This document shows positions 2,215-20,934 of a DNA stretch of 64,000 bases, piece by piece. Below the pieces are notes generated by a model. The model ran no database searches. It was not told the origin of the DNA and saw nothing but the letters and a program-made list of their open reading frames with translations. The translations under genes and the position numbers were made by a program. The stretch is from an uncultured Chloroflexia bacterium. GTDB lineage: Bacteria; Chloroflexota; Dehalococcoidia; UBA2979. Within the stretch, counting starts at the first letter, position 1; each line of letters starts with the position of its first letter. The stretch covers positions 128,001-192,000 of the forward strand of contig CAVSIV010000002.1 of NCBI GenBank assembly GCA_963728205.1. The letters run 5' to 3'.

Positions 2215-2342
2215 GGTGCACCTCCTCGATCCACGCTACCAGCCCCGGTCACGGCATCTCGCGCGTCGTGGTCCCGGGACTACCGGGGCGACCGCGTTTG
2301 TGATGTGATGGCCGTGCTCGCGACTGCGAGGGGAGGCCATCA

Positions 2343-3260
2343 ATGACGACGCCCGACGGACCGGACCCCGCTTACCGGATCCCGGTGAGCTACATCGACA
2401 AGTCGCGCGAGTACTACCTCGCGCAGGGCTATGGGAACCCGTACCGCTGGGCTTACTACGCGGACGTGCCGTTCACGCCGCTCGCGAAGCCGCTGGCGCA
2501 GTCGCGCGTCGCGCTGATCACGACCGCCTCGCTGATCCCCGGCGGCGCGGACCACGACCCCGACCCCGAGTCCATGCCGGTGCCCTCCGCGTACGTCGCG
2601 CCGAGCGACCCCGCGCCGAAGCGCCTCTACACACAGCACCGCTTCTGGGACAAGGACGCGACGCACACCGACGACCTCGACTCCTTCTTCCCGATCCACC
2701 GTCTCTGCGAGTACGAGGCGGAGGGCCGCATCGGCGAGCTCTCGCCGCGCTTCTACGGCATGCCGACCGACTACAGCCAGCGCCGCACCATCGAGCAGGA
2801 CGCGCCGCAGGTGCTGGAGTGGTGTCGCGAGGACGGCGTCGACGTCGCGCTGCTCGTCCCGCTCTGACCGGTCTGCCACCAGACCGTGAGCCTGGTATCC
2901 CGGCACCTCGAAGCGAACGGCATCCCGACGGTCATCCTCGGCTCCGCGCGCGACATCGTGGAGCAGTGCGGCGTGGCGCGGCTGGTCTTCACGGACTTCC
3001 CGCTCGGCAACCCCACGGGAAAGCCGTACGACGCCGCCATGCAGCGCGCGATCGTCGGCTTCGGGCTCGACCTGCTGGAGAGCGCGCGGGCACCCCGCAC
3101 CACCGTGCAGACGCCGTTCCAGTGGGATGAGTCGGGCGAGTGGCGCGCGAACTTCATGCGTGTCGACGACTCGACGCGCGCGGTGCTGCGCCGCGCGGGC
3201 GAGATGCGCCGACGCCAGCAGGAGCGGCGCAAGCAGGAGGGCCGGGCACGCGCGACATAA
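2343..3260 (+). CDS. GrdB/PrdB-like (glycine/sarcosine/betaine/proline reductase selenoprotein B family) protein with Sec at UGA 2865-2867
   Basis: ORFs 2343-2867 and 2886-3260 share a frame and are joined by a single TGA: DVALLVPL-U-PVCHQTVSLVSRHLEANGIPTV (UxxC motif). A hairpin follows the UGA, and there is an SD (GGAGG) before ATG 2343. Confidence 0.85.
2868..2897 (+). promoter_or_regulatory. Putative bacterial SECIS element
   Basis: ACCAG(2878-82)/CTGGT(2892-96) stem with a CGUGA loop, placing GU about 18 nt after the UGA. An alternative fold is CGGTCTG-CCAC-CAGACCG. Confidence 0.55.
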
Positions 3261-3291
3261 GCGCGCAGCTCGGCGCAGCGGCCGAGTCCGC

Positions 3292-5118
<1,827 letters not shown>

Positions 5119-5379
5119 CGATGCTCCTCGGCGTGGTCGCGCCGGCTGTGGGTGCGAGGTGGGCGTGGCGAGGGGCGCTCGTGATGTGGAGCGGCGCCGT
5201 GTGCATCGAGTGTACGGCGGCTGCCGGCTACGCGCGCCGGCACGCGATCCCGGCGCGGTTCCGCAGAGCCGACGCGCGTTCCCCGCGTGCGCGCCACTGC
5301 CGCGACGCCGCTGCGTTCGGTGTGAGGCGCCCGGTGCCGGGGTTCCGACCGGCGGCGCACGGCGCACCGGAGCGCGAGC

Positions 5380-5820
5380 TCACTCCGATTCCTCCACGGA
5401 TGCGGCGTCGGCGGCGCATCCGTCCGCCACGGGGCGAAACACGGCCCGGTCGGCGACGACGAAATTCACGACCGCGGCGGCCACGATCCCCAGCGCGGAC
5501 GCCGCCAGGTCGGGCAGGACCACGACGGTCGCGGCGAACACGCCGACGTTGAGCAGGGCGGTGCCGGCGATCGCGGAGTGAAACCCCAGCCAGCGCGCGA
5601 CGATCGCCGCCCGCGGGTTGCGGTCACGCCACGTGAAGACGCAGCTCAGCGCGAAGTTGACCTGCGCCGAGACCAGGAACGCGACGGCGTCGGCGGGCAC
5701 GCTCCACATGCCCGCGACCAGGAGCAGCCGCAGCAGCGCGAGCTGGACGACGGCGGCCGTCGCGCCCACCAGCGCAAAGCGAGCGGGTCGCAGGGCGACG
5801 AGCCGACGGGCGTATCGCAT
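5380..5820 (-). CDS. GtrA family membrane protein
   Basis: Four hydrophobic segments; motifs RFALVG, NFALS..FTW and VNFV...VF. Confidence 0.8.
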
Positions 5821-5914
5821 GCTCTCCCGATCCTCGTCGCTCGTCGCCCGGATCGCAGGTCACGCCCTGGGAGGCGAATGGGTAACGAGGCGATCGCTTC
5901 TCGCCCCGGCGCAC

Positions 5915-5940
5915 AAAAAAGAGGCCCCGGTCGGGGCCTC
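5915..5940 (-). terminator. Intrinsic terminator after tRNA-Met
   Basis: On the minus strand: GAGGCCCCG-AC-CGGGGCCTC followed by TTTTTT. Confidence 0.85.
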
Positions 5941-5954
5941 AACAGGTTGGGAAC

Positions 5955-6029
5955 TGGTAGCAGGGGGGAGATTTGAACTCCCGACCAAGGGCTTATGAGT
6001 CCCCTGCTCTACCACTGAGCTACCCTGCC
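5955..6029 (-). tRNA. tRNA-Met(CAT), probably elongator
   Basis: GGCAGGGTAGCTCAGTGGTAGAGCAGGGGACTCATAAGCCCTTGGTCGGGAGTTCAAATCTCCCCCCTGCTACCA folds as a cloverleaf with encoded CCA. No C1 mismatch, so not the initiator; Ile2 cannot be fully excluded. Confidence 0.9.
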
Positions 6030-6203
6030 ACGGATTTCCCAGTCTAGGTTCTGACGCCGTTCCGGTCACCCCGTGGCGCACCCGGCCGCGCCCCCGCGCG
6101 CCGCTCATCCGCGGGCCGGCCGGGGTGGGCGGCCTCCGTAGCATGGGATCAGGGGAGAACGCGGCGTGCTCGTCGCGGATGTCCCGCAACCGAGGAGGAT
6201 GCG

Positions 6204-6632
6204 ATGCGCGTGCCCGCCATCGGTCGCGTCCGTCCGTGGCTCTGGATTCCGCTCGCCGTGTTCGCCTGCGCGGCGCTGGTCACCGCGTGCAGCCACGGCA
6301 ACGCTACCCCAACCGCGAGCCCACCCCTTCAGACGTTCACGGTGACCGTGAACGCGGACGGACTCAGCCCCAGCCAGGTGAAGATGCGCGTACCCGACAA
6401 GGCGCGCCTCATCGTCCAGAACGACACGTCGGACGACTGCGTCTTCTCGTTCGGGCCGTACGTGCAGCGCATGAATGTCCCGCCGCACGACAAGTCGACC
6501 ATGGCCTTCACCGCGATTGCGACGCAGGACCTGCCGCCCAACCTCGCCGTCGAGGGCCCGATCACGATGGGCTGCGAAGGCGGCCAGCGCACCGGGACGA
6601 TCCAGTTGCTCACTTCGACGTCGACACACTGA
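6204..6632 (+). CDS. Lipoprotein with cupredoxin-like fold
   Basis: Lipobox LVTAC. The beta-strand pattern FTVTV..GLSPSQVKM....ARLIVQN...GTIQL resembles cupredoxin/EfeO N-domains. SD GAGGAGG. Confidence 0.6.
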   Translation: MRVPAIGRVRPWLWIPLAVFACAALVTACSHGNATPTASPPLQTFTVTVNADGLSPSQVKMRVPDKARLIVQNDTSDDCVFSFGPYVQRMNVPPHDKSTMAFTAIATQDLPPNLAVEGPITMGCEGGQRTGTIQLLTSTSTH

Positions 6633-6740
6633 CGCCGCGCACCACCGCCCGGCGGCGCGTCCCGCTCCCCGTCGCGCCCGTGCCGGGGTACCGTCCCCGC
6701 TGACTTCCCGCGGACGGTTCGGCGCGAGACGGAGGGTGCG

Positions 6741-7682
6741 ATGACGGCAGCTTCGCGAGCGGACGGCCGCGGCGGCGCGCGCCGCCCACCGGGCGAAGAG
6801 CCGCGGGACACGCGCGCAGCGGTCAACGGGGTCGACCTCTGCGTGTTCGACTGGCCCGGCGACGGCCCGCCCCTTCTCTTCGCGCACGCGACGGGCTTCC
6901 ACGCGCGCTGCTGGGACGAGGTGATCCGCCGCCTCCCCGGCCGTCGCGCGCTCGCGGTCGACATGCGCGGCCACGGCCGCAGCGACCGGCCTACGCCGCC
7001 CTACGAGTGGTCGCAGATGGGCGAAGACGTCACCGCGCTCGTCGGCGCGCTCGACCTGCACGGCATCGTCGCCGTCGGGCACTCGATGGGCGGCCACTCC
7101 GTGACCTACGCGGCCGGGCACGCGCCCGATCGCTTCGGAGCGCTCCTGCTCGTCGACCCCGTCATTCGCTCGCCGGAGGGCTACCGCGCCGCGGCGGCGG
7201 AGCAGCAGCGTGAGGACGCGGGCGGCTCGTCGTTCGTGGCGCGGCGGCGCAACCAGTGGGCGTCGGTCGAGGAGATGGTCGAGCGCTTTGCCGGCGGGCC
7301 CCCGTTCGGGGCGTGGGACCCGCAGGTGCTGCGCGACTACTGTCGCTACGGCCTGCTGCCGGCGCCCGGAGGCGACGGCTTCGTGCTCGCGTGCCCGCCC
7401 GCGATTGAGGCCGACATCTACGCCCACGCAGCCCTGACCGACGTCGACGACGCCGTCGCGCGCATCGCGATCCCCGTGCGCGTGCTGCGCGCGCCGCCCG
7501 CGTCGCCGGGCGCCGGCGCGTTCTCGGGGTCGCCGACAGACCCCGGCCTCGCGAGCCGCTTCGCCCACGGCGAGGATGTGCTGCTCCCCGGCGCTTCGCA
7601 CTACATCCCCATGGAGTCGCCGGCGCTCGTCGCACGGCATGTCGCGGAGATGGCGACGCTCGCGGACGCCCCGCGCGACTGA
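6741..7682 (+). CDS. Alpha/beta fold hydrolase
   Basis: HATGF, DMRGHGRS, the GHSMGG nucleophile elbow and the C-terminal SHYIPME. Confidence 0.9.
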   Translation: MTAASRADGRGGARRPPGEEPRDTRAAVNGVDLCVFDWPGDGPPLLFAHATGFHARCWDEVIRRLPGRRALAVDMRGHGRSDRPTPPYEWSQMGEDVTALVGALDLHGIVAVGHSMGGHSVTYAAGHAPDRFGALLLVDPVIRSPEGYRAAAAEQQREDAGGSSFVARRRNQWASVEEMVERFAGGPPFGAWDPQVLRDYCRYGLLPAPGGDGFVLACPPAIEADIYAHAALTDVDDAVARIAIPVRVLRAPPASPGAGAFSGSPTDPGLASRFAHGEDVLLPGASHYIPMESPALVARHVAEMATLADAPRD

Positions 7683-7772
7683 GCCCGCGTGGTCCCTCAC
7701 GCGCGACGTTGCTAGGCTCCGCGTGCGCGCCGCAGCGGGGGCGCCGGACGCGCGCCGCCGGAGGTCCGCTCG

Positions 7773-8980
7773 ATGTCACGCGCCCCGTGGGTGCGCGCGA
7801 GCGCGCTGTCCCTCGCCCTGCTCACCGCGGCGACGCTCGCCACCGCCTGTCACGGCGCGCGCGGCGCGACGCCCGATGCGCCGGCCGACACGCGCGCCAT
7901 CACCGTGGCGGCCGGCAATCCGATCCGCATCGGCATCTCCTCCATCCTGGACGGCAGCCTCCGCGCGCTCGGCATCCCGCTCGCGCGGGCCGCCGAGCTC
8001 GGCGGGCGCGGCGTGACCGTCGACGGCCACCCGCTCGACTTCGAGCGCTCCGACGACGCCTGCACCGCGGACGGCGGCGTGGCCGCCGCCCGCACGCTGA
8101 TCGCGAGCGGCGTCGTCGCCGTGATCGGGCCGGTCTGCTCGGCGTCGGTGCAGGCCGCGCAGCCCATCTACGCGGCCGCCGGCGTTCCCGTGCTGTCGCC
8201 GGCCTCGACCGCGATCGGCGACACGGTGCCCGTAAGCGGCACGGCGTACGCCGGGTTCTTCCGCCTCGCCTACGACGACGCGATCCAGGCGCAGGCGCTT
8301 GCGCGCTTCGCGACCGAGCGCCTGCACGCGAGCACGGCCTACATCGTCGCGTTCGACGATTTGTTCGGCGCGCAGTACCGCGACGCCTTCGCGGCTGCGT
8401 ACGCCGGGCGCGTCGTGGGCGCCGCGTCGTTCCCGGCCGGCGCCACTGCGTTCCCCTCGGCGGTCCGCGGATCCAGGACTCGCATGCGCAGGTGGTGCTG
8501 TTCTTCGGCTACTCCGCCGAGGCCGCCCCGTTCGCCCGCGCGCTTCAGGCCGCCGGGGTGCGCGTCCCGCTGCTCACGCCCGACACCGTGCACGACTCCC
8601 AGTTCCCGGCGCAGGCGGGCAGCGCGGCGGAGGGCGTCTACGTCGCCCTCCCCGACCCCACTCCGTCCGGCGCCGCCTACGAGCGTTTCAGCGCCGCCTA
8701 CGTTGCCGCGTACGGCGCCTCCGCCGCGGCCGCCCCGTTCACCCCGCAGGCGTTCGACGCCACCGCCGTCCTGGCCGACGCGCTGCGACGCGTCGCGCGG
8801 CCCGCCGGCTCCGCCCTCACGATCGACCTCACCGCGCTGCGCGCCGCGGTCGCGCGGACCGATCTCACGGGCGCGTCGGGGCGGGTGCGCTTCGATGCGC
8901 TGGGCGACAACGTCGGAACGGCGACGCCCGTGCGCATCCTCGTGGTGCGGGAAAGCACGTTCGTCGACACGGGGTTCTAG
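7773..8980 (+). CDS. Branched-chain amino acid ABC transporter substrate-binding lipoprotein (LivJ/K family); frameshift near 8468
   Basis: Lipobox LATAC, DDAC, VIGPVCS and FFRLAYDDAIQ in the 7773 frame. The C-terminal half (VVLFFGY...GASGRVRFDALGD) is in the 7709-8980 frame. Confidence 0.8.
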
Positions 8981-9077
8981 CGTGGACGAGGTTGCGGGGC
9001 GCCTGCTGCGCGAATGATCTACCCTGAACGAACGGGGACGGCGGCGAGCAGAAGCGTCCCCTGGGAACGAGGGCACC

Positions 9078-9698
9078 ATGCCGAACGACACCGAGCGCAC
9101 CGACGGAGCCACGCCCGAGATCCGCTTCACGGACGACGCGGCGGAGAAGCTTGCCGAGGTGATCGGGAACCACCCGAATCCGGTCGCCGGCCTGCGGCTC
9201 CAGATCCTCGGCCGTGCCGAGGGCCAGTTCCAGCACGTCCTCAGCCTCGTCGAGGACGGCGCGCAGATCGAAGACGACATCGTCGTCGAGACCGACGACG
9301 GTATCCGTGTCTTCGTCGAGCGCATGAACGCGAAGTACCTCGACGGCGTAGAGATCAACTACGCCGACAAGGGGCCGGGTCGGACCGGCCTCGAGTTCTC
9401 GAACCCCAACCCGCTCTGGATGGACGAGCGCGAAGAGCTGGTTCAGCGCATCTTCGACGAGCAGGTCAACCCCGCGATTGCCGCACACGGCGGCATCGTG
9501 AACCTGCTCGCGGTCGACGGCGACACCGCCTACGTCCAGTTTGGCGGCGGCTGCCAGGGCTGCGGCATGGTCAACGTCACGCTCCAGCAGGGCGTCGAGG
9601 TGGCCGTCAAGGAGCTGGTGCCGAGCATCGAGCACATCGTCGACGCCACGGACCACCAGTCGGGCACGAACCCCTACTACCAGCCCGCGAAGAAGTGA
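9078..9698 (+). CDS. nfuA: Fe-S biogenesis protein NfuA (degenerate A-type domain + NifU C-terminal domain)
   Basis: GLEFSNPN, VNPAIAAHGG, FGGGCQGCGM and DATDHQSGTNPYY. Confidence 0.92.
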   Translation: MPNDTERTDGATPEIRFTDDAAEKLAEVIGNHPNPVAGLRLQILGRAEGQFQHVLSLVEDGAQIEDDIVVETDDGIRVFVERMNAKYLDGVEINYADKGPGRTGLEFSNPNPLWMDEREELVQRIFDEQVNPAIAAHGGIVNLLAVDGDTAYVQFGGGCQGCGMVNVTLQQGVEVAVKELVPSIEHIVDATDHQSGTNPYYQPAKK

Positions 9699-11167
9699 TG
9701 CCGCCGGGCATGCCCGGCCGCGCGCCAGGCGCGCCGCTCCGCGTCCTGCTCGTCTCCACCTACGAGATGGGCCACCAGCCACTGGGCCTCGCGGCCCCGG
9801 CCGCCGCGCTGCGCGGAGCCGGCCACGACGTCCGGACCCTGGATCTCGCCGTCGAGTCCCCGGAGCTCGAGCGCTTCGACGACGTCGACCTCGTCGCGAT
9901 CTCAATCCCGATGCACACGGCGGCGCGGCTCGGGATCGACCTCGCCGGCCGCCTGCGCCGCCTGCGGCCGGCGCTGCGCATCGCGTTCTACGGCCTCTAC
10001 GCGACGCCGCTCGCCGACCGCCTCGCGCGCGACGGCCTCGCCGACGCCGTGATCGGCGGCGAGTACGAGCCCGGACTCCTCGCGCTCGCCGCGCGCCTCG
10101 CCGGCGCGCCGGCCGACCCGCTCGCGCTCGCGGGCGTCGGCCCGCAGCCCGCGTTCGCGCGGCAGGCGTACCCCGTCCCGGATCGCACGGGATTGCCGCC
10201 GCTCGACGCCTACGCACGCCTCCAGCTCGGCGACGAGCAGCGGCTCGCGGGCTACGTCGAGACGACCCGCGGCTGCGCCCACCACTGCACGCACTGCCCG
10301 CTGACGCCCGTCTACGGTGGGCGCCTGCGCGTCGTGCAGGCCGAGACGGTGCTCGCGGACATCGATCAGCTCGTCGCGGCCGGCGCGCGCCACATCACCT
10401 TCGGCGACCCTGACTTCTTTAACGCCCTGCCCCATGCGCGCGCCGTCGTCGACGCCATGCGCGTCCGCCACCCGGACCTCACGTTCGACGCGACCATCAA
10501 GGTCGAGCACCTGCTCGAGCACGCCGACGCCCTCGCCTGGCTGCGCGGGCGGGGCTGTCTCTTCGTCACCTCCGCGTTCGAGTCGACGAACGACGCCACG
10601 CTTCGCCTGCTCGACAAGGGCCACACGCGCGACGACATGGATCGCGCGGTGGCGGCGGCCGAGGCCGCCGGGCTGCCCGTGCGGCCGACGTGGGTGGCGT
10701 TCACGCCGTGGACGGCACCGGCGGACCTCCTGGACATGCTCGCGTTCATCGAGTCGCGCGGGCTCGTCGAGCACGTGCAGCCGGTGCAGTACGGCATCCG
10801 GCTGCTGCTGCCGCCCGGCTCGCCGCTCGTCGACCGGCTGCGCGACGAGGGCCGGCTCGGCCCGTTCGACGACGACGCCCTCACCTATACGTGGGCGAGC
10901 GCCGACCCGCGCATGGACGCGCTGCAGCGCGAGCTGGCCGGGATCGTGGAGTCGGCGGCGTGCGCGAGCTGCGACGCGGAGCCCGCCGTGGAGACGTTCC
11001 GCCGCGTGAAGCAGGCGACCGTCGCGGCGCTCGCGGGCGACGCGGCGCCGGTGGCGGTAGCCGCACAGCCCCGGCGGGTGGTGCCGGGGCTGACCGAGTC
11101 GTGGTTCTGCTGAGCGGAGCCGACGGGGGCGCAGTTGGCGCCCCTCGACCGCGCGCTCGGGCTGTGA
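9698..11167 (+). CDS. CUAEP-tail radical SAM selenoprotein with an N-terminal B12-binding-like domain; Sec at UGA 11111-11113
   Basis: ATG overlaps the nfuA stop (TGATG). N-terminus LLVSTYEMGHQPLGLA; TRGCAHHCTHC (CxxxCxxC, 10274-10297). C-terminus LTESWFC-U-AEPTGAQLAPLDRALGL, with the next stop at 11165-11167. Confidence 0.9.
11121..11147 (+). promoter_or_regulatory. Putative bacterial SECIS element
   Basis: GGGGCGC(11126-32)-AGUUG-GCGCCCC(11138-44) hairpin extended by CGA/TCG. The loop GU lies about 20 nt after the UGA. Confidence 0.65.
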
Positions 11168-11183
11168 CCCCGGCCGCCTCGCG

Positions 11184-11579
11184 CTAGACGACCGTCACCG
11201 GGATCCGCTGGGTCTCCTCCTGGAGTTCCTCGGCGACGCTTCCGTCGATCAGGTCGCGGAACGCGCTGTGCTCATGCGACGCGATCACGATGCGATCGAC
11301 GTGCTCGTCGCGCGCGACCTCGAGGATCCCGCGCACCGGGTCGCCCGCGAGCCGCACCTCCTCCTGGACGTGCAGACCCGGGTCGAGGCGCTCACGGACC
11401 TTCCGCAGCCGCTTCTCGAGCACCGAGTGCGTCTCCTTCGCGTGCTGTGACACCTCGGGCAGTTCGCCCACGCTGACGAGGACGAGCTCGAAATCGCGCT
11501 CGCCGCGGCCCAATTCGAGGGCCTTCGGCAGCGCGTGCTCGGAAAACTCCGTCTCGTCGATCGGAACGAGGATCTTCAC
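11184..11579 (-). CDS. Universal stress protein (UspA family)
   Basis: KILVPID.TEFSEHAL, GDP..GIL..A....VDRIVIASH and GSVAE...IPVTVV. GTG start with SD GGAGGGAG. Confidence 0.88.
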   Translation of the reverse strand: MKILVPIDETEFSEHALPKALELGRGERDFELVLVSVGELPEVSQHAKETHSVLEKRLRKVRERLDPGLHVQEEVRLAGDPVRGILEVARDEHVDRIVIASHEHSAFRDLIDGSVAEELQEETQRIPVTVV

Positions 11580-11758
11580 CGCGTACTCCCTCCAGGGGGG
11601 CGTGGATGGCCCTCCTTCGAGTCTACGAGGGCCGCGCGACCATCCCGGCGCAACGGTCGCCGTCCGTCGACAGCGGGCGCACCAACTCAGCGGCGCCGGA
11701 GAGGGCGCCGATCTGGTGGGCGGCGCGAGCCGCCCCCTCCCTTTCCCCGCCTCTGCCG

Positions 11759-12994
11759 TCAGTCGATGTCGAACGTCAGACGGCCGTGCGCCGCGCGCAG
11801 CGCCGCTTCGACCGCTTCCGGCGTCTCCCCGCGGGCGAAGATGAACCCCAGGTACTCGCTGCCCTCGGGCAGCGGCACGACCTCGCTGCCGGGGTGAATC
11901 GAAATCGTGACCGATTCGATCAGCGGCACGCGCTCCGCCTCCGCGATGCCATGCACGGCGCGCAGCGTGCCTCCCCGCGGGATCGGGATCATCATCACAC
12001 CGGCTGCCGCCGACTGCCGCTCGTAGGACGGCACCTCTGCGCCGATCGCGTGGCGCAGGAGCAACTCCTCGAGCGACATGCCCGTGCCGAAGCTCAGCGT
12101 CCGCGAGCACAGGCCACCGATCGACCGCGCCGCGATGTCGACCGGGTAGACGCCGTCGTCGTTGATCCGCAGCTCCGCGTGCACCGGCCCGTCGAAGAGC
12201 GCCAGCGCGGCACACGCCTGCTCGGTGGCCGCGATCGCCGCCTTCTGCCGTGCCTCGGGCAGCCGCGACGGCGTCACGTAGATCGTCTCTTCGAAGTACG
12301 GGCCCTCCAGCGGGTCGGGCTTGTCGAAGACCGCGAGCACCCGCAGCCTTCCATGATCGAGCAGCCCCTCCAGCGAGACCTCGATGCCGGGGATGTAGCC
12401 CTCCACGAGCAGGCGGTCCACGAGCTCGTGGCCGCACTCGTCGCGCGCGTCGGGTGACTCGAGAATGCGTCGCACGCGCCCGAAAGCCGCGACGAATGCG
12501 TCGGCGTCGTCGGCGCGGATCACGCCCTTGCTCGCGGAAAGCGCGAGCGGCTTCAGCACGACGGGGTACGTCAGGTCCGCGGCGGCCGCGCGGGGATCGT
12601 CGAGCAGCGACACCGCGCGGAACGCGGGCGACGCGATGCCGGCGGCGGCCAGCCGCTCGCGCAGCAGCAGCTTGTTCCGCGTCGCCTCCACGGCCGCGAC
12701 GGGGTTGTAGGGCAGCTCGAGCCGGCGCGCCGCGCGCGCTGCCACCAGCGCACCGCCGTCATCCACCGCCACGATCGTGTCGAGCGGGTGCCGCCCCGCG
12801 AACGCCTCGATCTCGCCGGCGCCGATGTCGGGCTCGGTGAAGTTCAGCCCGAGCGTCCGCCCCTCGGACAGCGATTCCAGCGGACTGCTCGCGTCGGAGC
12901 CGACGACCACCTCGACGCCGAGCTTCGCCGCAGCCTCCATGAAGTCGGGCGCGCGGTAGGAGCGGGTGGGGATCAGGAGCATCACTCGCGGCAC
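11759..12994 (-). CDS. ATP-grasp domain protein (amino-acid-ligase-like)
   Basis: RNKLLLR, YPVVLKPLALSASKGVIR, LVEGYIPGIEVSLE, DKPDPLEGPYFEE, HAELR and DIAARSIGG. Confidence 0.9.
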   Translation of the reverse strand: MPRVMLLIPTRSYRAPDFMEAAAKLGVEVVVGSDASSPLESLSEGRTLGLNFTEPDIGAGEIEAFAGRHPLDTIVAVDDGGALVAARAARRLELPYNPVAAVEATRNKLLLRERLAAAGIASPAFRAVSLLDDPRAAAADLTYPVVLKPLALSASKGVIRADDADAFVAAFGRVRRILESPDARDECGHELVDRLLVEGYIPGIEVSLEGLLDHGRLRVLAVFDKPDPLEGPYFEETIYVTPSRLPEARQKAAIAATEQACAALALFDGPVHAELRINDDGVYPVDIAARSIGGLCSRTLSFGTGMSLEELLLRHAIGAEVPSYERQSAAAGVMMIPIPRGGTLRAVHGIAEAERVPLIESVTISIHPGSEVVPLPEGSEYLGFIFARGETPEAVEAALRAAHGRLTFDID

Positions 12995-13108
12995 AGCGCA
13001 CCTCCCGGTCGGGTTCGGGGCGTGAACGCAAAGCAGCCGGCCCGGGGGCCGGCTGCGATCGTATGCGCATCCGCGCGCCGGCCGCCTCGCGGCCGGCGCA
13101 AAGCGTGG

Positions 13109-13444
13109 CTAGTGGCCGCCGCAGCCGCAGCTGCCGCCGCCGAGCGCCGCCGCGTTCGGCGCCTCGATGGCGAAGCCGGACTGCATCACGTCGTCCACGT
13201 AGTCGATCGACGCGCCCTCGAGCACCGGCGCGGACGCGGAGTCGACGATGAAGGTCAGCGTGCCGACCCGGATCACGGAGTCCTGGTCCGACGCGCTGTC
13301 GAGGCCCATGCCGAACTGCGGCCCGCTGCACGCGCACCCGCCCGACTGGGCGAAGATGCGAATCGCGTGGTCCGGGGTCTCCTCGCGGTCGGCAAGGAGC
13401 GCGCTCAGGCGCTGCTGGGCCAGGTCGGTCACGGTCAGGTTCAT
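13109..13444 (-). CDS. A-type Fe-S carrier (IscA/SufA/ErpA, HesB family)
   Basis: GGCACSG, IDYVDD...GF.I.APN and a C-terminal SCGCG. Confidence 0.9.
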   Translation of the reverse strand: MNLTVTDLAQQRLSALLADREETPDHAIRIFAQSGGCACSGPQFGMGLDSASDQDSVIRVGTLTFIVDSASAPVLEGASIDYVDDVMQSGFAIEAPNAAALGGGSCGCGGH

Positions 13445-13556
13445 GTGGGATTCCCATCGGGTAGCGCGCCCGAAAGCGCAGCGACAGCTTCGCTAATCAC
13501 GTCCCATGATGACGGACCGGGGGAAGGCCTGCAAGGAGCGAGCCTCGCGGCGCCCG

Positions 13557-15725
13557 TCACGCGCCCGCGATCACCGTCAGCAGCTCTTCGCCGAACCGGC
13601 CGACGCGCGCCTCCCCGAGCCCCCATACCTCGAGCAGCGCCGCGTGCGAGGCCGGCCGCGCCGCGACGAGCTCGCGCATCGTGCGATCCGAGAACAGCGT
13701 GTACGCCGGCACGCCTTCCGCTCGCGCGCGCTCCGAGCGCCACCTCCGCAACGCCTCGAACAGCGGGTCGCCGCGCACCGCCTCGATGCCGGGATCCCGC
13801 GAGCCTTCGCCGCCGCCCGCGCTCGCGCTCGACCGGCGCGTCGGCGCAGCTGCCGCCGGCGGCGGCGGCGGCGCCTCCGGGTGCGCCGCGCTCCACTCCG
13901 CGACCACCGCGAGCAGCTCGCGCCCGAACCAGTCGGCGCGCTTCTCGCGGATGCCCCAGACCGTGAGCAGGGCGTCGCGGTCCCGCGGCCGCCGGATCGC
14001 GACCTCGCGCGCCGTCCGCAGCTCGAACACGCGCGACGGGTCGAGCCCGCTGCGCCGCGCGATCTGCTCGCGCACCTCGAGGATCGCGTCGTACAGCTCG
14101 CGGGGGTACTCGATGCGCACGGCCGTGCCCTCGCCCCGGCAGTTGTCGCAGCGGTCGCACCGGTCCGCCGGCGTCTCGCCGAAGTAGCGCAGGATCACCG
14201 CGCGCCGGCAGGTGTCGGTCTCCGCGTACTCCGTCATCTCGCGCAGCCGGCCCTCGGCGTACGCGCGGTGCCGGGTGATCGACGACACGTCGATCGGCGC
14301 GGCCGGGTCGAGCGTCGTCAGCCGCAGCTCCGACGCCTCGAGCAGCCCGCTGTCGCGCAGGGCAGCCACCGTGATCGCGAAGCGGTCGATGTCGTCGTCG
14401 CCGGCGCCGGGAGGTAGCCGCCCGCCGTGCTGCGCGGCGAGCACGACCCAGTGCCGCCACGTGCGGCGCACGGTCGCCTCGTCCGGGTGCGCCTCCTCGA
14501 TCATGCGCTGTGCCAGCCGCCGGTCGCGCTCCGCGTAGAGCAGCACGCACTCGGCCGGGTCGCCGTCGCGGCCGGCGCGCCCGGCCTCCTGGTAGTACGA
14601 CTCGAGGCGGGCGGGCATGTTGTGGTGGATGACATAACGGACATCGGGCTTGTCCACGCCCATGCCGAACGCCGTGGTCGCGACGATTACGGGCAGCTCC
14701 CCGAGCGTGAACCGGCGCTGCACGCTCGAGCGCTCGTTGCGCGGCAGCCCGGCGTGGTAGGCGGCCGCGCCGACGCCGGCCTCGCGCAGCGCCTCGGCGA
14801 CCTCCTCGACGCGCCGCCGCGACCGCGCGTAGACGATGCCGGCCTGCCCGGGGTGGGCGAGCGCGTACTCGACGATCCAGCGCAGCCGCTCCTCGGGCCG
14901 GCTGATCGGCCGCACGACGAAGCTGAGGTTCGGTCGGTCGACGGTGGTGATCACCTCCACCGCGCGGCCGGTAAGGCCGAGCCGTTCGAGGATGTCGCGC
15001 CGCACCTGCGGGTTCGCCGTCGCGGTCAGCGCCAGCGTGCGCGGGGAGCCGAGGCGCTCCCGCACCGAGCCCAGCTGCAGGTAGTCGGGCCGGAAGTTGT
15101 GCCCCCACTCCGAGATGCAGTGCGCCTCGTCGACGGCGAGCAGGTTGACGCCGGCGCGCCGCAGCCCCTCCGTGAAACGCTGGTTCGCGAACCGCTCGGG
15201 CGCGACGTACAGCAGCGAGGTGCGCCCCGCGATGAAGTCCGCGTACCGCCGGTTCTGCTCTTCGCGCCCGAGGTTCGAGTTGATGAACGTCGCTGCGACG
15301 CCGGCTGCCTGCAGCGACTCCACCTGGTCCTGCATCAGCGCGATCAGCGGGGACACGACGACCGTGCGGCCGACCTCGAGCGCCGGCAGCACGTAGCAGA
15401 GGCTCTTGCCGCTGCCGGTGGGCATCACCGCCAGGACGTCGCCGGCGGCGAGCCGCGCGAGCACGTCGGCCTGGCCGTCGCGGAAGTCGGGGTACCCGAA
15501 GGTCTCGCGCAACCGCTGACGATAGCGGTACAGCTCGGCGGGCAGGCGGACGCGCGGAGCGCCGGGAGCGGCGGCCGGCCGGGGAAGGGGGTGTGGCTGC
15601 GGCGCAGCCGCGAGCGCCTCCGCCGGGTGCGGCGGCGCGTCGCCCGCCGGCCGTCCGCAGGCGGGACAAAACGCCGCCGCGGGCGGGACGGCATCGCCGC
15701 ATCCGGGGCACTGAATCGAGATGAT
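13557..15725 (-). CDS. recQ: RecQ family DNA helicase with two HRDC domains and a probable N-terminal zinc ribbon (start uncertain: ATC 15725 or TTG 15512)
   Basis: MPTGSGKS, DEAHC, WGHNFRPDY, FGMGVDK, YYQEAGRAGRDG and CRR...CDRCDNC. The frame stays open upstream through CPGC-x9-CPAC. Confidence 0.9.
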   Translation of the reverse strand: MISIQCPGCGDAVPPAAAFCPACGRPAGDAPPHPAEALAAAPQPHPLPRPAAAPGAPRVRLPAELYRYRQRLRETFGYPDFRDGQADVLARLAAGDVLAVMPTGSGKSLCYVLPALEVGRTVVVSPLIALMQDQVESLQAAGVAATFINSNLGREEQNRRYADFIAGRTSLLYVAPERFANQRFTEGLRRAGVNLLAVDEAHCISEWGHNFRPDYLQLGSVRERLGSPRTLALTATANPQVRRDILERLGLTGRAVEVITTVDRPNLSFVVRPISRPEERLRWIVEYALAHPGQAGIVYARSRRRVEEVAEALREAGVGAAAYHAGLPRNERSSVQRRFTLGELPVIVATTAFGMGVDKPDVRYVIHHNMPARLESYYQEAGRAGRDGDPAECVLLYAERDRRLAQRMIEEAHPDEATVRRTWRHWVVLAAQHGGRLPPGAGDDDIDRFAITVAALRDSGLLEASELRLTTLDPAAPIDVSSITRHRAYAEGRLREMTEYAETDTCRRAVILRYFGETPADRCDRCDNCRGEGTAVRIEYPRELYDAILEVREQIARRSGLDPSRVFELRTAREVAIRRPRDRDALLTVWGIREKRADWFGRELLAVVAEWSAAHPEAPPPPPAAAAPTRRSSASAGGGEGSRDPGIEAVRGDPLFEALRRWRSERARAEGVPAYTLFSDRTMRELVAARPASHAALLEVWGLGEARVGRFGEELLTVIAGA

Positions 15726-15809
15726 CGGTACGGGTCCCCTCGCCTGCAGCCGAGATTCTACCCCGGCGCCGCGGTGCGGGCCCCCGTCGGTTCACGGGCG
15801 GGCGGCGCC

Positions 15810-16616
15810 TCAGGCGGCCTCGGCGAAGATCCCGCGGTACCAGTCGACCTTCTTCTCCAGGCCGTCCGTCCCGCCGAGCGAATCGACGATCGCGAAGTCA
15901 TCGCCGTCTTCGTCGAGCGCCTCCGGCTTCGGACCGCGGACGAGCCCGTCACCGATGCCGAGCAGCTGCGAGATGCGCCGGCCGTTGTACGTCACCCAGG
16001 CGAGCGCCGAGCCCTCGCCGTCATGGTGGCCGGCGATGCCCTCGATGATCCCCTCGGGAAAATTCCAGGCCGTCGCGACCTCGACGCCCCACTCCACGTG
16101 GTCGTAGCCGAACACCGCCCGCTCCGCGTCGCACGGCTCATCGGCGTTTGCCACGCGCGCGACGACCTCGCGGTAGCGCTCGGGCTCCTGCGCGGCCATC
16201 GCGAGCCGGCCGACGTCGTGCAGCAGGCCCGTCGTGAACGACTCCGTGCGCGGTCCGCCGGGCCACGCCGATGCGTCCGACAGCATCGCGGTGGCGAGCA
16301 GGTGCCGCCACATCTCGTCGGTGTCGAGCCCGGCGCGGTCGAGGTCGCGGAACGTCTGGCCGAGCGTCGCGCCGGCGATGATGCGGCGCGTCGACATCAG
16401 GCCGATGCGGACGATGGCGTCGCTCGCCGTCCCGATGCGGCGGACCGCCGTCTGCGCGGCGGCGTTCGCTGCGCGCAGGACGGCCACGGTCAGCGCCGGG
16501 TCGCTCTCGATGACGGCGGCGACGTCGGTGATTGTCGCGTCGTGGCGCGACATCAGCGAGATCGCGCGGGCATGCGTGGCCGGCAGGGTGGGGAGCTTGC
16601 TGGTATTCGCGGTCAC
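15810..16616 (-). CDS. HDOD domain protein
   Basis: LPTLP, IESDPALT..VLR.AN, AIVRIG, GLLHDVGRL, E...FGYDH and W.FP..I...I..HH. Confidence 0.88.
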   Translation of the reverse strand: MTANTSKLPTLPATHARAISLMSRHDATITDVAAVIESDPALTVAVLRAANAAAQTAVRRIGTASDAIVRIGLMSTRRIIAGATLGQTFRDLDRAGLDTDEMWRHLLATAMLSDASAWPGGPRTESFTTGLLHDVGRLAMAAQEPERYREVVARVANADEPCDAERAVFGYDHVEWGVEVATAWNFPEGIIEGIAGHHDGEGSALAWVTYNGRRISQLLGIGDGLVRGPKPEALDEDGDDFAIVDSLGGTDGLEKKVDWYRGIFAEAA

Positions 16617-16803
16617 GGGGCAGTCCCTCGGGGGTGCGTGAGCGCTCCGCCCCCGGGGCGGAGGCATGCGGTCCGATACCGCGATCATCGGTGTCGGCGT
16701 TGATCTCCACAGGTCGCGCCGACCGCGACCTGGCGCGAGCGCGCGCGTTGACCCCCGCGCGCGCCGCCCGGAACATGGACCGGCGGGGATGGATGGAGGC
16801 GGT

Positions 16804-17372
16804 TTGAGTCTGCGCCGCTCGCTGCTGCGTTCGACCGTCGCCCTGGCCCTCGCACTCGCGATCGCCGGCTCCGCCGCCGCCTGTCGCGGCGGCGGCAACG
16901 CCACCCCGTCGCCGACCGCCACCGCCGCTCCGCCGGCGACCCCGACGGCCAGCGCGACCACGGTCGCCGTCACCTCGCTCCACGACGTGAACTTCGAGGA
17001 CCCCGCCCTCGCCGGCCCGCTCATCAACCGCGCCGGCGGCGGCGAGGTGCACGAGAACCGCGTGCGGTTCGCCGACCTGATCGGGGGTGACGGCGTCGAC
17101 GAGGCGGTCGTGATCGTGGACTGGGCGGCACGGCGGGGGAGATCGGTGCGGGCGTCTTCCGGCTCGAGGGCGGACGCCCCGCGTTCGTCCAGTTCCTGCG
17201 CTACCAGGGCAGGCTCGACATTCGCCAGGACCTGGTCGTGACGCTCGAGGGCGTCTACGCGCCGGGTGACCCGGAGTCCAGCCCTTCGCGGCTGCATGAG
17301 ATCGCGTACCGCTGGAACGGCTCGCAATTCGCCGTCTTCACGGACCAGGTGATCGCGAACCCGTCGCGCTGA
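16804..17372 (+). CDS. Secreted lipoprotein (LppP/LprE-like); frameshift near 17122
   Basis: SD GGAGG then TTG; lipobox SAAAC; FADLIGGDGVDEAVV. Adding one base continues the frame as GGTAGEIG...YAPGDPESSPSR...YRWNG, ending at TGA 17372. Confidence 0.65.
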
Positions 17373-17563
17373 CGGGCGCTTGCATCGCAACCGTCGCCTT
17401 GTCACGTTATCCCCGAGTTATCCACGACCTTTGACAAACACGTTTGTTGATGCCACGCCGCGGCGTGGCAGTGTGCGCGTGGTCGCCGCTTTGACAGCCC
17501 CCGCCGAGCGGGAGTGCAATGCGGTCGCGCTCCACAACGATCGGGTCCGGGAGGAGAGGGAGC

Positions 17564-18068
17564 ATGGCCGACTTCGATCTGCGGTCGTCGAGTTTCGTGG
17601 ACGGCGACTACTTCGAGCGCGACTACGTCCTCGCGGAGGAGTATGGCTTCGGCTGTGCGGGCGGGAACGCACTCGCCGCAACTGTCCTGGGGCGAGCCGC
17701 CGGCCGGCACGCAGAGCTTCGCGCTCACCCTGTACGACCCCGATGCGCCGACCGGCAGCGGCTTCTGGCACTGGGTTGTGGTGAACATCCCGGCGAACGT
17801 GCGCGAGCTGCCGCTGGACGCGGGCAACCCCGAGAGTGGCAAGCTGCCGGCGGGCGCGCTTCAGGTGCGCACCGACTTCGGGAAGCCCGGCTACGGCGGC
17901 CCCTGCCCGCCCGCGGGCGACCACCCGCATCGGTATATCTTCACGGTCCACGCGGTCGGGGTAGAACAGCTCTCGGTCACGGCGGACACGTCCGCGGCGG
18001 TGGTCGGCTTCCAGCTGCACTTCAACACGCTGGCCACGGCGGCCCTGATGGGCCTCTACAAGCATTAG
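17564..18068 (+). CDS. YbhB/YbcL family (PEBP/RKIP-like) protein; frameshift near 17669
   Basis: MADFDLRSSSF...GFGCAGGN, then in the other frame SPQLSW, YDPDAPTGSGFWHW and YGGPCPP..DHPHRY. Confidence 0.9.
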
Positions 18069-18084
18069 GGGACGAGGCCGGAGG

Positions 18085-18621
18085 TCAGGTGCCGCGCGAC
18101 CCCGCGTCCGCCTCGGCTTCGGCGGCGGCTTCCGCCTCGAGTTCCGCGAGCCGGCGCTCGAGCGCCAGCGCGCAGCGCGCCGGTTCCGCGATCGCGATCT
18201 CCGAGAGGAGCGCACGCACGGTCCCGCGGCCCCAGGCGCTCTCGTGCGTCTCGCCGAGCCGCTCCTCCAGGCTGCGCGCGAGCGACGCGAGCATGCGGCG
18301 GTCCTGGTCGAGCCGTGCCAGCAGCCCGGGAATCGACGGCGCGGCGTACAGCAGCGCCAGCACGACGCTCGGGTCTCGGTCCTGCCGTCCGCCCGGCGCC
18401 GTCGCGCCGGCGGCCACGCTGCCGAGTGTCGCGGCCACCAGCTCCATCTCCGTCGCGAGCGCCGCCGCGCGCCAGCGCGGCGATCGCCCGTCGCCGTCGG
18501 TGCGCTCCGCGCCGGCCTCGCCCATGCGGCGCAGCGCCGCCGCGATGCGGCGGTGCAGCTCGCCCGACGCCTCCTCGAGCGCGTCGAGCGGAAGCGCGTC
18601 GAAGGCGTTTGTCTGCGCCAT
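18085..18621 (-). CDS. Hypothetical helical protein (possibly DinB-like)
   Basis: SD AAAGGGA and genome-like codon usage; no recognisable catalytic motif. Confidence 0.55.
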   Translation of the reverse strand: MAQTNAFDALPLDALEEASGELHRRIAAALRRMGEAGAERTDGDGRSPRWRAAALATEMELVAATLGSVAAGATAPGGRQDRDPSVVLALLYAAPSIPGLLARLDQDRRMLASLARSLEERLGETHESAWGRGTVRALLSEIAIAEPARCALALERRLAELEAEAAAEAEADAGSRGT

Positions 18622-18698
18622 CGGGCGAGGTCCCTTTCCGCGGGCTCCGGGTCGGCCGCGGCTTCGCGCGGGACTCGTGCACTCGCTACGCTACGCGC

Positions 18699-18926
18699 AT
18701 GAAGCTGGGCCTCGGCGGACATCTTCTCGTGCTGGCCGCGCTCGTCGTCAACCTCTGGTTCGGTGGCGATCTCCTGCAGGCGTGGCTCGGGTGGGATGTG
18801 CGCCAGGTCTTCGAGTTCGCGCTCATCCTCGCGTACATGTGGCTCGTGCTCGGCATCCGCACGCCGCTCCCGTGGCAACGGCGGGACGAACGGGCCGGTC
18901 GCGATGAGGACGGGCGCGGCGCCTGA
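18699..18926 (+). CDS. Small membrane protein (2 TM), probably leaderless
   Basis: MKLGLGGHLLVLAALVVNLWF...FALILAYMWLVLGI. TACGCT lies 6 nt before the ATG. Confidence 0.65.
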   Translation: MKLGLGGHLLVLAALVVNLWFGGDLLQAWLGWDVRQVFEFALILAYMWLVLGIRTPLPWQRRDERAGRDEDGRGA

Positions 18927-18976
18927 CCCGTCGCCGTGGTCGGGCACTCGGAAGCAGCCGGCCGTGGGCCGGTCGT

Positions 18977-19053
18977 GGGCGATTAGCTCAGTTGGCCAGA
19001 GCGTTCGGTTTACACCCGGAAGGTCGGAGGTTCGAGCCCTCCATCGCCCACCA
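18977..19053 (+). tRNA. tRNA-Val(TAC)
   Basis: GGGCGATTAGCTCAG...TTCGGTTTACACCCGGA...GGTTCGAGCCCTCCATCGCCCACCA cloverleaf. Confidence 0.95.
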
Positions 19054-19278
19054 CACGCCCCCGCCACCCGGCGGCGCCGCACTCCCGCTTGTTCGCCCCG
19101 CCCATGCCGCCGAGCCGGCACGGACGACCCGTCGCCCGCCCGCCCGTCCGCGTCCGGGACACGCGTACTCTGTTGATCGTCCTCAGACCGCCCACCTACA
19201 CTCCGCGCGCCCTCGCACCCTGCGGGCCGCCTATCGCACGCACGTCGCACGCGGCGTGACGAGAACCGGGACAGTGCC

Positions 19279-20934
<1,656 letters not shown>

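Follow-up and report, generated by a model that had tools for sequence, protein, structure and literature searches.

The sequence analyzed here, referred to below as the window, is a stretch of 64,000 nucleotides from an uncultured Chloroflexia bacterium (Dehalococcoidia, UBA2979 in the GTDB lineage; GenBank assembly GCA_963728205.1, contig CAVSIV010000002.1, positions 128,001 to 192,000 of the forward strand), and all positions given without further label are those of the window. Our subject is a gene for a radical S-adenosylmethionine (SAM) enzyme in which a TGA at 11111-11113 interrupts the reading frame shortly before its end. The gene order at this locus is a periplasmic binding protein, an NfuA-like iron-sulfur (Fe-S) carrier and the radical SAM gene, with genes for a universal stress protein domain, an ATP-grasp enzyme and an IscA/HesB-type carrier on the opposite strand (Table 1).

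Table 1. Coordinates of the radical SAM gene, its internal features and the neighboring genes.
Feature	Position	Strand	Basis or comment
Radical SAM selenoprotein, full coding sequence	9698..11167	+	Translation with TGA read as U, 489 codons plus stop; NF040546 585.3 bits
N-terminal B12-binding-like (Rossmann) domain, residues 17-120	9746..10057	+	Pfam PF02310, 42.7 bits
CxxxCxxC radical SAM cluster motif (C193, C197, C200)	10274..10297	+	Unchanged in all 77 aligned sequences
CASC motif, residues 422-425, in a variable loop	10961..10972	+	CxxC at this place in 5 of 77 sequences
Cys471-Sec472-Ala-Glu-Pro tail motif	11108..11122	+	In 27 of 27 loci of relatives and 77 of 80 wider loci
UGA selenocysteine codon	11111..11113	+	Column is TGA in 51, TGC in 18 and TGT in 8 loci
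SECIS-type hairpin, 7-bp stem and loop AGUUG	11126..11144	+	Fold and covariation
NfuA-like Fe-S carrier (A-type and Nfu domains)	9078..9698	+	Pfam Fe-S_biosyn and NifU; TIGR03341 105 bits, below cut-off
Gene with a universal stress protein domain, separating the radical SAM gene from the ATP-grasp gene	11187..11576	-	Pfam Usp 59.9 bits, C-terminal 130 residues of the open reading frame 11184-12437
L-amino-acid-ligase-like ATP-grasp gene, convergent	11759..12994	-	Pfam ATP-grasp_4, LAL_C2 and ATPgrasp_N; weak NCBIfam matches to BacD and DdaF
IscA/HesB-type A-type Fe-S carrier, upstream of the ATP-grasp gene	13109..13444	-	TIGR00049 75.5 bits (cut-off 58.8); Pfam Fe-S_biosyn

A radical SAM gene that continues past an in-frame UGA

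As gene callers have it, the open reading frame (ORF) spans 9698-11113 and ends with ...ESWFC at the TGA, giving a protein of 471 amino acids, and the database entry for the window's own product is this 471-residue form. The TGA directly follows a cysteine codon (TGC-TGA at 11108-11113), and the frame stays open past it through AEPTGAQLAPLDRALGL (17 codons) to a second TGA at 11165-11167. Upstream, the frame is open from 9014; the likely start is the ATG at 9698, which overlaps the stop of the NfuA-like gene (ATGA), and from this start the gene has 489 codons with the in-frame UGA as codon 472. The initial annotation of the window, made from the letters alone, had proposed this continuation, a 7-bp GC hairpin about 12 nt after the UGA, and a 489-residue selenoenzyme with selenocysteine (Sec) at position 472. 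The continuation and the hairpin are both present where it placed them, and the Sec472 assignment is borne out by a family match that extends across the Sec position, by homologs with cysteine (Cys) there, by covariation in the hairpin and by the Sec genes of the genome, all described below. A public contig of 151 nt is identical to 11097-11247, TGA included, and no alternative letter at 11111-11113 appears in the four public runs compared; both observations come from Logan contigs rather than raw reads, and public DNA runs were matched only by a small share, the other matching pieces belonging to relatives or to other organisms. Among public RNA runs, none is listed as containing the stretch.

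The read-through protein scores 585.3 bits against NF040546, the curated NCBIfam family of radical SAM (seleno)proteins with a CUAEP or CCAEP tail, for which the cut-off is 500; this match supports the family membership that the initial annotation had suggested. The alignment covers residues 16-481 and positions 1-467 of the 468 in the profile, and it crosses the Sec position. The window protein has the full length of the family, its architecture of a B12-binding-like followed by a radical SAM domain (Pfam Radical_SAM PF04055, 46.5 bits, residues 187-331), its C-U/C-A-E-P tail and its alternation of Sec and Cys, and it differs only by a lineage-specific CxxC (CASC) loop and a 17-residue tail after the Sec. 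It is an ordinary member of an already catalogued family, and both the family and its selenoprotein status are already curated; Cys-form homologs already carry the family name at NCBI. A profile search of the genome itself recovered a single copy, at 578.9 bits with one TGA read through. In one related genome, a 77%-complete bin (G013), there are two full-length family matches (contigs C2 and C52), for which duplication or mixed strains are both possible. A search of a protein collection returned at least 7909 proteins with E ≤ 1e-10 (8000 scored); among the best 120 homologs, 89 stop after the ...C, at the place of the UGA, and the other 31 have CCAEP.

Selenocysteine and cysteine alternate at the UGA position

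We compared the codon at this position in two sets of homologous loci. The first was drawn from 61 related genomes, in which 27 loci have a full match; all 27 carry W-F/Y-C-[C/U]-A-E-P-T, with TGA in 17 and TGC or TGT in 10. The second, wider set comes from scanning a single genome for each species and comprises 80 loci; the tail motif is present in 77 of these, where the codon is TGA in 51, TGC in 18 and TGT in 8. The motif was not found in the other three of the 80 loci (L088, L090 and L130); in L088 and L090 the match stops before the tail, at query residues 403 and 377, respectively, and at a contig end. The initial annotation had expected that homologs would place Cys at the UGA and that the AEP would be conserved. 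Cys codons indeed occupy the position in 10 of the 27 relatives and 26 of the 77 wider loci, and the peptide A-E-P-T-x-x-Q that follows it is kept in frame in 77 of the 80 loci across many phyla; a conserved peptide after the UGA is seen in Chloroflexota, Acidobacteriota, Planctomycetota, Methylomirabilota/Rokubacteria, Nitrospirota, Ignavibacteriota, Myxococcota, Actinomycetota and Poribacteria.

To place these forms relative to each other we used a FastTree phylogeny of the 77 sequences from which the tail columns had been excluded. It requires at least nine switches between Sec and Cys, against a mean of 22.1 when the states are shuffled, and the nearest neighbors of the window sequence in this tree are two Cys forms.

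A hairpin that covaries in selenocysteine forms

Bacterial-type decoding of the UGA would be guided by a selenocysteine insertion sequence (SECIS), and the candidate here is the hairpin behind the codon. Its stem pairs GGGGCGC (11126-11132) with GCGCCCC (11138-11144) around the loop AGTTG (11133-11137), with 12 nt between the UGA and the stem. Folded as a single sequence it is unremarkable (z = -0.84; 40 of 200 shuffles fold as well), which is expected given that the DNA is 71% G+C, and the evidence therefore had to rest on covariation. We used an ungapped 45-nt alignment of 51 TGA forms, comprising the window and 50 loci; L117 was left out, as its contig ends. In these Sec forms the seven pairs of the stem are 89.7% paired with 58 double-change (compensatory) cells, a result reached in 0 of 500 shuffles, and shifted pairing registers all score far lower. 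The same columns are 53.8% paired in the 26 Cys forms. The Sec forms retain C-A-G-U-U from the upper stem into the loop, whereas the loop positions G27 and T28 are not conserved in the Cys forms (consensus CAG-CT). The shuffle z of a 60-nt segment averages -1.11 in Sec forms versus -0.05 in Cys forms (Mann-Whitney p = 1.5e-5); the raw folding energies of the two groups do not differ (p = 0.74). The hairpin covaries in Sec forms only.

A scan of 10900-11300 against Rfam at E ≤ 10 gave two chance-level matches and no SECIS family. We also considered and rejected a reading of the 11126-11144 hairpin as a transcription terminator, as no T-run follows it and it was not called terminator-like.

Selenocysteine machinery of the genome

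The initial annotation had named selA, selB, selC and selD as genes that should accompany a selenoprotein. The tRNA-Sec is present (RF01852, 73.8 bits; called as tRNA-SeC(tca) by ARAGORN), as are selB (309.9 bits, cut-off 242) and selD (363.6 bits, cut-off 125). The selD gene, which lies outside the window at G000:C4:155115-156053 (-), has its own in-frame TGA and is likely a selenoprotein itself. For selA the expectation held only in part: a match of 408.5 bits, above the cut-off, is present at G000:C2:332097-333424 (-) but is split over two frames by an apparent one-base indel. This is the point that speaks against active decoding, and given the frameshift the Sec codon may currently not be decoded in this strain. 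The frameshift may be an assembly error, which we consider probable, or a real lesion; selA is uninterrupted in all three same-genus genomes, and among the relatives 16 of 17 TGA-form genomes and 11 of 11 Cys-form genomes have the gene. The assembly consists of six contigs and is 89% complete with 5.6% contamination.

Elsewhere in the window, two ORFs at 2304-2867 and 2868-3260 (+) share one frame and are split only by the TGA at 2865-2867. Reading this TGA as U gives ...LVPL-U-PVCH..., which contains a UxxC motif, and a perfect 6-bp hairpin follows shortly after the TGA at 2871-2886. The N-terminal part of the product matches Pfam GRDB, the selenoprotein B family of glycine/sarcosine/betaine reductase, and gene calling has probably split a second selenoprotein gene at 2304-3260.

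Taken with the family match, these comparisons of homologous sequences indicate that the gene at 9698-11167 almost certainly encodes a 489-residue NF040546 radical SAM enzyme in which the UGA at 11111-11113 is decoded as Sec by SelB and tRNA-Sec under the guidance of the hairpin 12 nt downstream, with its conserved loop G-U-U, and that the protein has an invariant Cys471-Sec472 pair in a conserved block near the C-terminus.

Conserved residues and predicted structure

Across the alignment of 77 sequences no cysteine position is invariant except C193, C197 and C200 of the cluster motif and C471 and U/C472 of the tail; E474 and P475 are also invariant. The Cys-Sec pair lies in a block of about 17 residues, P-x-L-T/S-E-x-W-F-C-U-A-E-P-T-x-x-Q (conserved residues P463, L465, E467, W469, F470, C471, U472, A473, E474, P475, T476 and Q479), which is followed by 10-20 residues more. 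Outside the triad of the cluster and the pair of the tail no cysteine is conserved, which makes an auxiliary cluster site unlikely. The CASC motif that the initial annotation pointed out near the C-terminus does exist, but it is not a feature of the family: outside the window and four close relatives no sequence has a CxxC at this position, a further six have a Cys-rich insert of another kind in the same variable loop, and 21 of the 77 have any cysteine in the stretch. With CxxC in just 5 of 77 sequences, we rejected the CASC motif as a metal or cluster site of the family. The Cys-rich inserts of the variable loop follow lineage, with CxxC in the window's clade and C-D-C plus a further C in a clade of Cys forms; besides the window, such inserts are seen in L053-L056, L067, L069, L071, L073, L074 and L076.

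An AlphaFold2 model built on the same alignment has a mean predicted local distance difference test (pLDDT) score of 93.5 and a predicted template modeling score (pTM) of 0.92. Residues 461-470 reach a regional pLDDT of 89, residues 471-480 one of 82, and the variable loop (421-430) one of 79. Given these values of 82-89 in the conserved tail block, the Cys-Sec pair looks like a docked element in the model rather than a floppy end. The initial annotation had instead suggested a flexible tail comparable to that of thioredoxin reductase, and this comparison does not survive. Thioredoxin reductase does share a vicinal Cys-Sec dipeptide near its C-terminus, but there the pair comes just before the last residue of a flexible end (GCUG), whereas in the window protein it is embedded in a structured, conserved block with 17 residues after Sec472. 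The roles that the initial annotation proposed for the pair, namely redox arm, metal or cluster ligand, or group carrier, may each still apply.

The best match among solved structures is AprD4 (6fd2; Foldseek E 1.5e-18), followed by TsrM, OxsB, MgmA and MiaB. AprD4 and the cobalamin-type class B enzymes TsrM, OxsB and MgmA have the same N-terminal Rossmann-like domain and radical SAM barrel (template modeling scores of about 0.67-0.71), at sequence identities of 14-21% and without the Cys-Sec tail. AprD4 itself is not known to contain cobalamin. The rare Cys-Sec dipeptide is also shared with other 'CU' selenoproteins, namely HgcA, SAO-locus proteins and some MerT, although their folds and contexts are unrelated and no mercury or organometal genes lie near the window gene. 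In the available part of a 2022 preprint, Haft reads this dipeptide as a signature of heavy-metal binding (10.1101/2022.07.06.499078).

Gene neighborhood and the ATP-grasp partner

We clustered the ORFs around the window gene and the 80 wider loci, giving 81 neighborhoods, of which 53 have at least 1.5 kb of flanking sequence on both sides. An ATP-grasp gene lies within 3 kb in 33 of the 81 loci (25 of the 53 well-flanked loci) and an NfuA-like gene in 29 (24 well-flanked). At least one gene for an NfuA-like, IscA or YggX protein is found within this distance in 38 loci (30 well-flanked), in several phyla and in varied gene orders. With taxon groups lumped from record titles, Dehalococcoidia-type loci have the carrier upstream and the ligase convergent; loci of Methylomirabilota, Rokubacteria and one of two Ignavibacteriales have the radical SAM gene, carrier and ligase in that order on one strand; and Ktedonobacteria loci have YggX upstream. 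A DUF169 gene follows in 6 of 11 Planctomycetota loci (L104, L105, L106, L114, L118 and L127), and in five of these six the adjoining ORF clusters include a LysA-like pyridoxal phosphate (PLP)-dependent decarboxylase and an FGE-sulfatase/EgtB-like gene. In close relatives of the window the ATP-grasp ORF begins 51-360 nt past the called radical SAM stop, and the universal stress protein gene that separates the two in the window is a local insertion outside the conserved set. A terminator-like hairpin with a T-run lies at 13033-13056 (-), between the IscA/HesB and ATP-grasp genes.

The association with the ligase extends beyond the immediate neighborhood. Using thresholds of E ≤ 1e-100 for the radical SAM enzyme and E ≤ 1e-80 for the ligase in the 61 related genomes, the ligase is present in 27 of 28 genomes that have the enzyme and in 0 of 33 that do not, although this profile is drawn from kin genomes and overstates the number of events, which tempers its weight. 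The sole enzyme-bearing genome without a ligase (G010) is 93% complete, and one of the 33 enzyme-free genomes has a weak ligase-type match at 30% identity. In 11 of the 27 genomes the enzyme and ligase are on different contigs. This genome-wide co-occurrence of sequences supports the view that the radical SAM enzyme and the ATP-grasp ligase are a functional pair.

Relationship to ArsL

The closest CHARACTERISED relative of the window protein is ArsL, at 35% identity, and the second-best NCBIfam model is that of ArsL proteins with an RCCLKC tail (NF040542), a sub-threshold match of 285.9 bits over residues 16-420 that stops before the tail. One protein with an RCCLKC tail, encoded on a Priestia plasmid and reaching 699 bits against the ArsL model, shares 35% identity with the window protein over residues 14-425 (E 1e-86). 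When six RCCLKC/ArsL proteins were added to the family alignment, 36 of the 59 columns that are invariant in the CUAEP family were identical in all six. In this alignment the vicinal CC of ArsL falls on C471-U472 and its third tail cysteine on Pro475; pairwise BLAST instead sets the start of the RCCLKC tail opposite the CASC loop, and the correspondence between the two tails thus depends on the alignment used. Both proteins have vicinal chalcogen residues near the C-terminus, and an L-amino-acid-ligase (LAL)-like ATP-grasp gene is often near both. They differ in that ArsL has a three-cysteine tail whereas the window protein offers two ligands (Cys-Sec), in that the window protein has about 45 extra residues between core and tail, and in their neighbors, which are ArsM, ArsR, aquaporin or ArsN for ArsL and Fe-S carriers for the window gene.

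The plasmid ArsL islands that we inspected contain arsenic genes. Five of six RCCLKC/ArsL islands (Priestia, Bacillus cereus, Alicyclobacillus, Pantoea and Klebsiella) also have an ATP-grasp gene, whereas a Pseudomonas arsQ-arsL-arsM island (L137) is without one. The islands carry in addition a varying set of ArsM, major facilitator superfamily (MFS) transporter, CobW-like GTPase, channel (aquaporin or MIP), GNAT/ArsN-type acetyltransferase and ArsR genes. On plasmids of Bacillota and Enterobacterales (L134, L135, L136, L138 and L139), an ArsL-family gene, an LAL-like ATP-grasp gene and a CobW-like GTPase gene occur together in arsenic islands; several of the ligase islands among L134-L139 also have ArsM, an MFS transporter and a small protein, which in one island scanned is an ArsD-related vicinal-cysteine protein. 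The ligases of the ArsL islands are 21-25% identical to the window ligase in pairwise comparisons that align at least 188 residues, and for four of the five the window ligase is the sole tblastn match in this genome.

What has been reported for ArsL provides the nearest guide to chemistry. According to the available portions of two preprints, ArsL cleaves SAM to methylthioadenosine and a 3-amino-3-carboxypropyl (ACP) radical, its C-terminal cysteines bind the substrate arsenite, and a tail-less form retains SAM cleavage but yields 2-aminobutyrate only (10.1101/2024.02.01.577332; 10.64898/2026.04.29.721666). The tail holds no extra cluster, and its removal leaves the iron and sulfur content unchanged; the available text of the same preprint makes no mention of B12 or cobalamin (10.1101/2024.02.01.577332). 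In the accessible part of the second preprint, all three tail cysteines bind arsenic and all three are required (10.64898/2026.04.29.721666).

Proposed reaction and alternatives

Our best guess, which we hold tentatively and at somewhat less than even confidence, is by analogy an ArsL-like transfer of the ACP group in which the Cys-Sec pair holds the acceptor or itself acts. In this proposal the [4Fe-4S] cluster of the CxxxCxxC motif would cleave SAM at the C-gamma-S bond to give methylthioadenosine and an ACP fragment. In place of the three-cysteine tail of ArsL, the Cys-Sec pair would hold a soft acceptor atom at the active site; alternatively the pair itself may be the nucleophile or carrier, and a carbon-heteroatom bond would form. 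The resulting unusual amino acid would be used by the co-inherited LAL-like ATP-grasp enzyme, probably giving an amide of dipeptide type, while the neighbors of NfuA, IscA or YggX type would maintain the oxygen-sensitive cluster in its loaded state. Arsenite handled in the manner of ArsL is probably not the acceptor, because the pair provides two chalcogen ligands instead of three and the neighborhood lacks arsenic genes.

Several observations weigh against this proposal and should temper its interpretation. The 285.9 bits scored against the ArsL model fall short of its cut-off of 450 bits, and the position of the third tail cysteine of ArsL is a proline (Pro475) in the window protein. None of the arsenic genes looked for (arsM, arsQ or MFS, ArsR, ArsN) was found among the window genes scanned, at 2304-20931. 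The fifth ArsL-island ligase has no tblastn match in this genome, and in the reverse search the window ligase is closer to proteins on Streptomyces and Pantoea plasmids (28-32% identity, E 1e-18 to 1e-22) than to those of the ArsL-type islands (about 22-25%). We had considered that the radical SAM enzyme and its ATP-grasp partner were inherited together from an ancestor shared by ArsL and the CUAEP proteins, and we dropped this idea in view of the closer Streptomyces and Pantoea plasmid relatives and the fifth ligase without a match; the parallel in ATP-grasp partners is an analogy only and not a co-inherited module. A literature search found no link between an ATP-grasp enzyme and arsinothricin clusters. 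None of the 11 Planctomycetota loci has an ATP-grasp gene nearby. The initial annotation had also stated that no reaction was known for the family, in agreement with the available part of the 2022 preprint, which terms NF040546 uncharacterized (10.1101/2022.07.06.499078); a literature search on CUAEP or CCAEP returned nothing relevant beyond that preprint.

One may instead postulate a canonical radical SAM reaction, in which a 5′-deoxyadenosyl radical takes a hydrogen from the substrate and the Cys-Sec pair quenches the product radical or cycles as a selenenylsulfide. The CxxxCxxC motif and class-B-like fold are as in canonical enzymes, the top structural match AprD4 is a dehydratase of the 5′-deoxyadenosyl type, and the nine or more switches between Sec and Cys across the 77-sequence tree are compatible with a redox residue in catalysis for which Cys can stand in. 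The vicinal Cys-Sec pair is, moreover, a known redox motif in thioredoxin reductase (GCUG), C-terminal redox pairs also occur in class I ribonucleotide reductase, and selenols are very fast hydrogen-atom donors. Nevertheless, the nearest characterized homolog, ArsL, is non-canonical and has 36 of the 59 family-invariant columns in common with these proteins; the pair is not at the extreme C-terminus but in a conserved, confidently modeled block; and no reductase partner is conserved nearby in the clustered neighborhoods of the window and 80 loci. On this evidence we regard a canonical reaction as unlikely, though well worth keeping in view.

A second alternative assigns the pair to sulfur or selenium insertion: the Cys-Sec would ligate an extra Fe-S species or a carrier-delivered chalcogen, which is inserted into the product and the donor rebuilt at each turnover. 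Such a role would make sense of the Fe-S or iron carrier genes within 3 kb in 38 of 81 loci (30 of 53 well-flanked) and of the NfuA-like gene that overlaps the radical SAM start codon. NfuA rebuilds the cluster of lipoyl synthase after turnover, and MiaB and RimO are among the fold matches. The carriers may, however, merely serve cluster repair in aerobes, and two conserved extra chalcogen ligands are too few for a standard auxiliary [4Fe-4S] site; in ArsL, as far as the available preprint text goes, tail removal left the iron and sulfur content unchanged (10.1101/2024.02.01.577332). We consider insertion quite improbable.

The frameshifted selA raises a further scenario, in which read-through has been lost in this strain, Sec-tRNA is not made and the protein ends at ...WFC in an inactive or partly active form. 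It draws on the selA gene being split over two frames here and uninterrupted in all three same-genus genomes, yet the Sec codon, the SECIS, the in-frame TGA of selD and the second TGA-containing gene of the window are all intact. This would make the loss a recent event or, more simply, the product of a one-base assembly error at selA, and we judge the scenario very unlikely. Finally, that TGA 11111 is an ordinary stop followed by a chance hairpin or terminator and a chance open frame is hardly credible: the single-sequence fold is no better than shuffles (z = -0.84) and matches no Rfam family, but the reading is already contradicted by comparative data, as in 77 loci the column holds either TGA or a Cys codon and nothing else, the peptide that follows is kept in frame across phyla, and the hairpin, which has no T-run and was not called terminator-like, covaries only with the TGA present.

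Implications for the family

The most immediate consequence concerns annotation: the called gene of 471 codons should be lengthened to 489 and include Sec472, and the cut at the same UGA in 89 of the 120 best homologs points to a systematic mis-calling of the NF040546 family. The family is large and spans many phyla, including the cultured aerobes Thermogemmatispora and Thermomicrobium roseum. The locus of the aerobic thermophile T. roseum DSM 5159 is on its megaplasmid (NC_011961, 796591-798027; L133) and is annotated as a CCAEP form, with 45% identity to the window protein and with a PLP aminotransferase, an MFS transporter and a large GNAT acetyltransferase as neighbors. Both this organism and Thermogemmatispora (L112 and L126) would be convenient for experiments.

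More broadly, the CUAEP enzyme, its ATP-grasp partner and an Fe-S carrier may together make up a pathway of wide distribution, occurring in Chloroflexota, Acidobacteriota, Methylomirabilota/Rokubacteria and other phyla. In an ArsL-type reaction this pathway would transfer the ACP group of SAM to a soft heteroatom that the Cys-Sec pair holds, perhaps through a new C-Se, C-S or C-metalloid bond, and the ligase would join the undescribed amino acid made in this way into a dipeptide-type metabolite. We offer this scheme as a possibility that is, on balance, somewhat unlikely to hold as a whole. The only studied relative, ArsL, does very unusual carbon-arsenic chemistry, and learning what the Cys-Sec enzyme and the ligase make, a question for the family at large rather than for this window in particular, would bring to light a new reaction of radical SAM enzymes and probably also a new metabolite.

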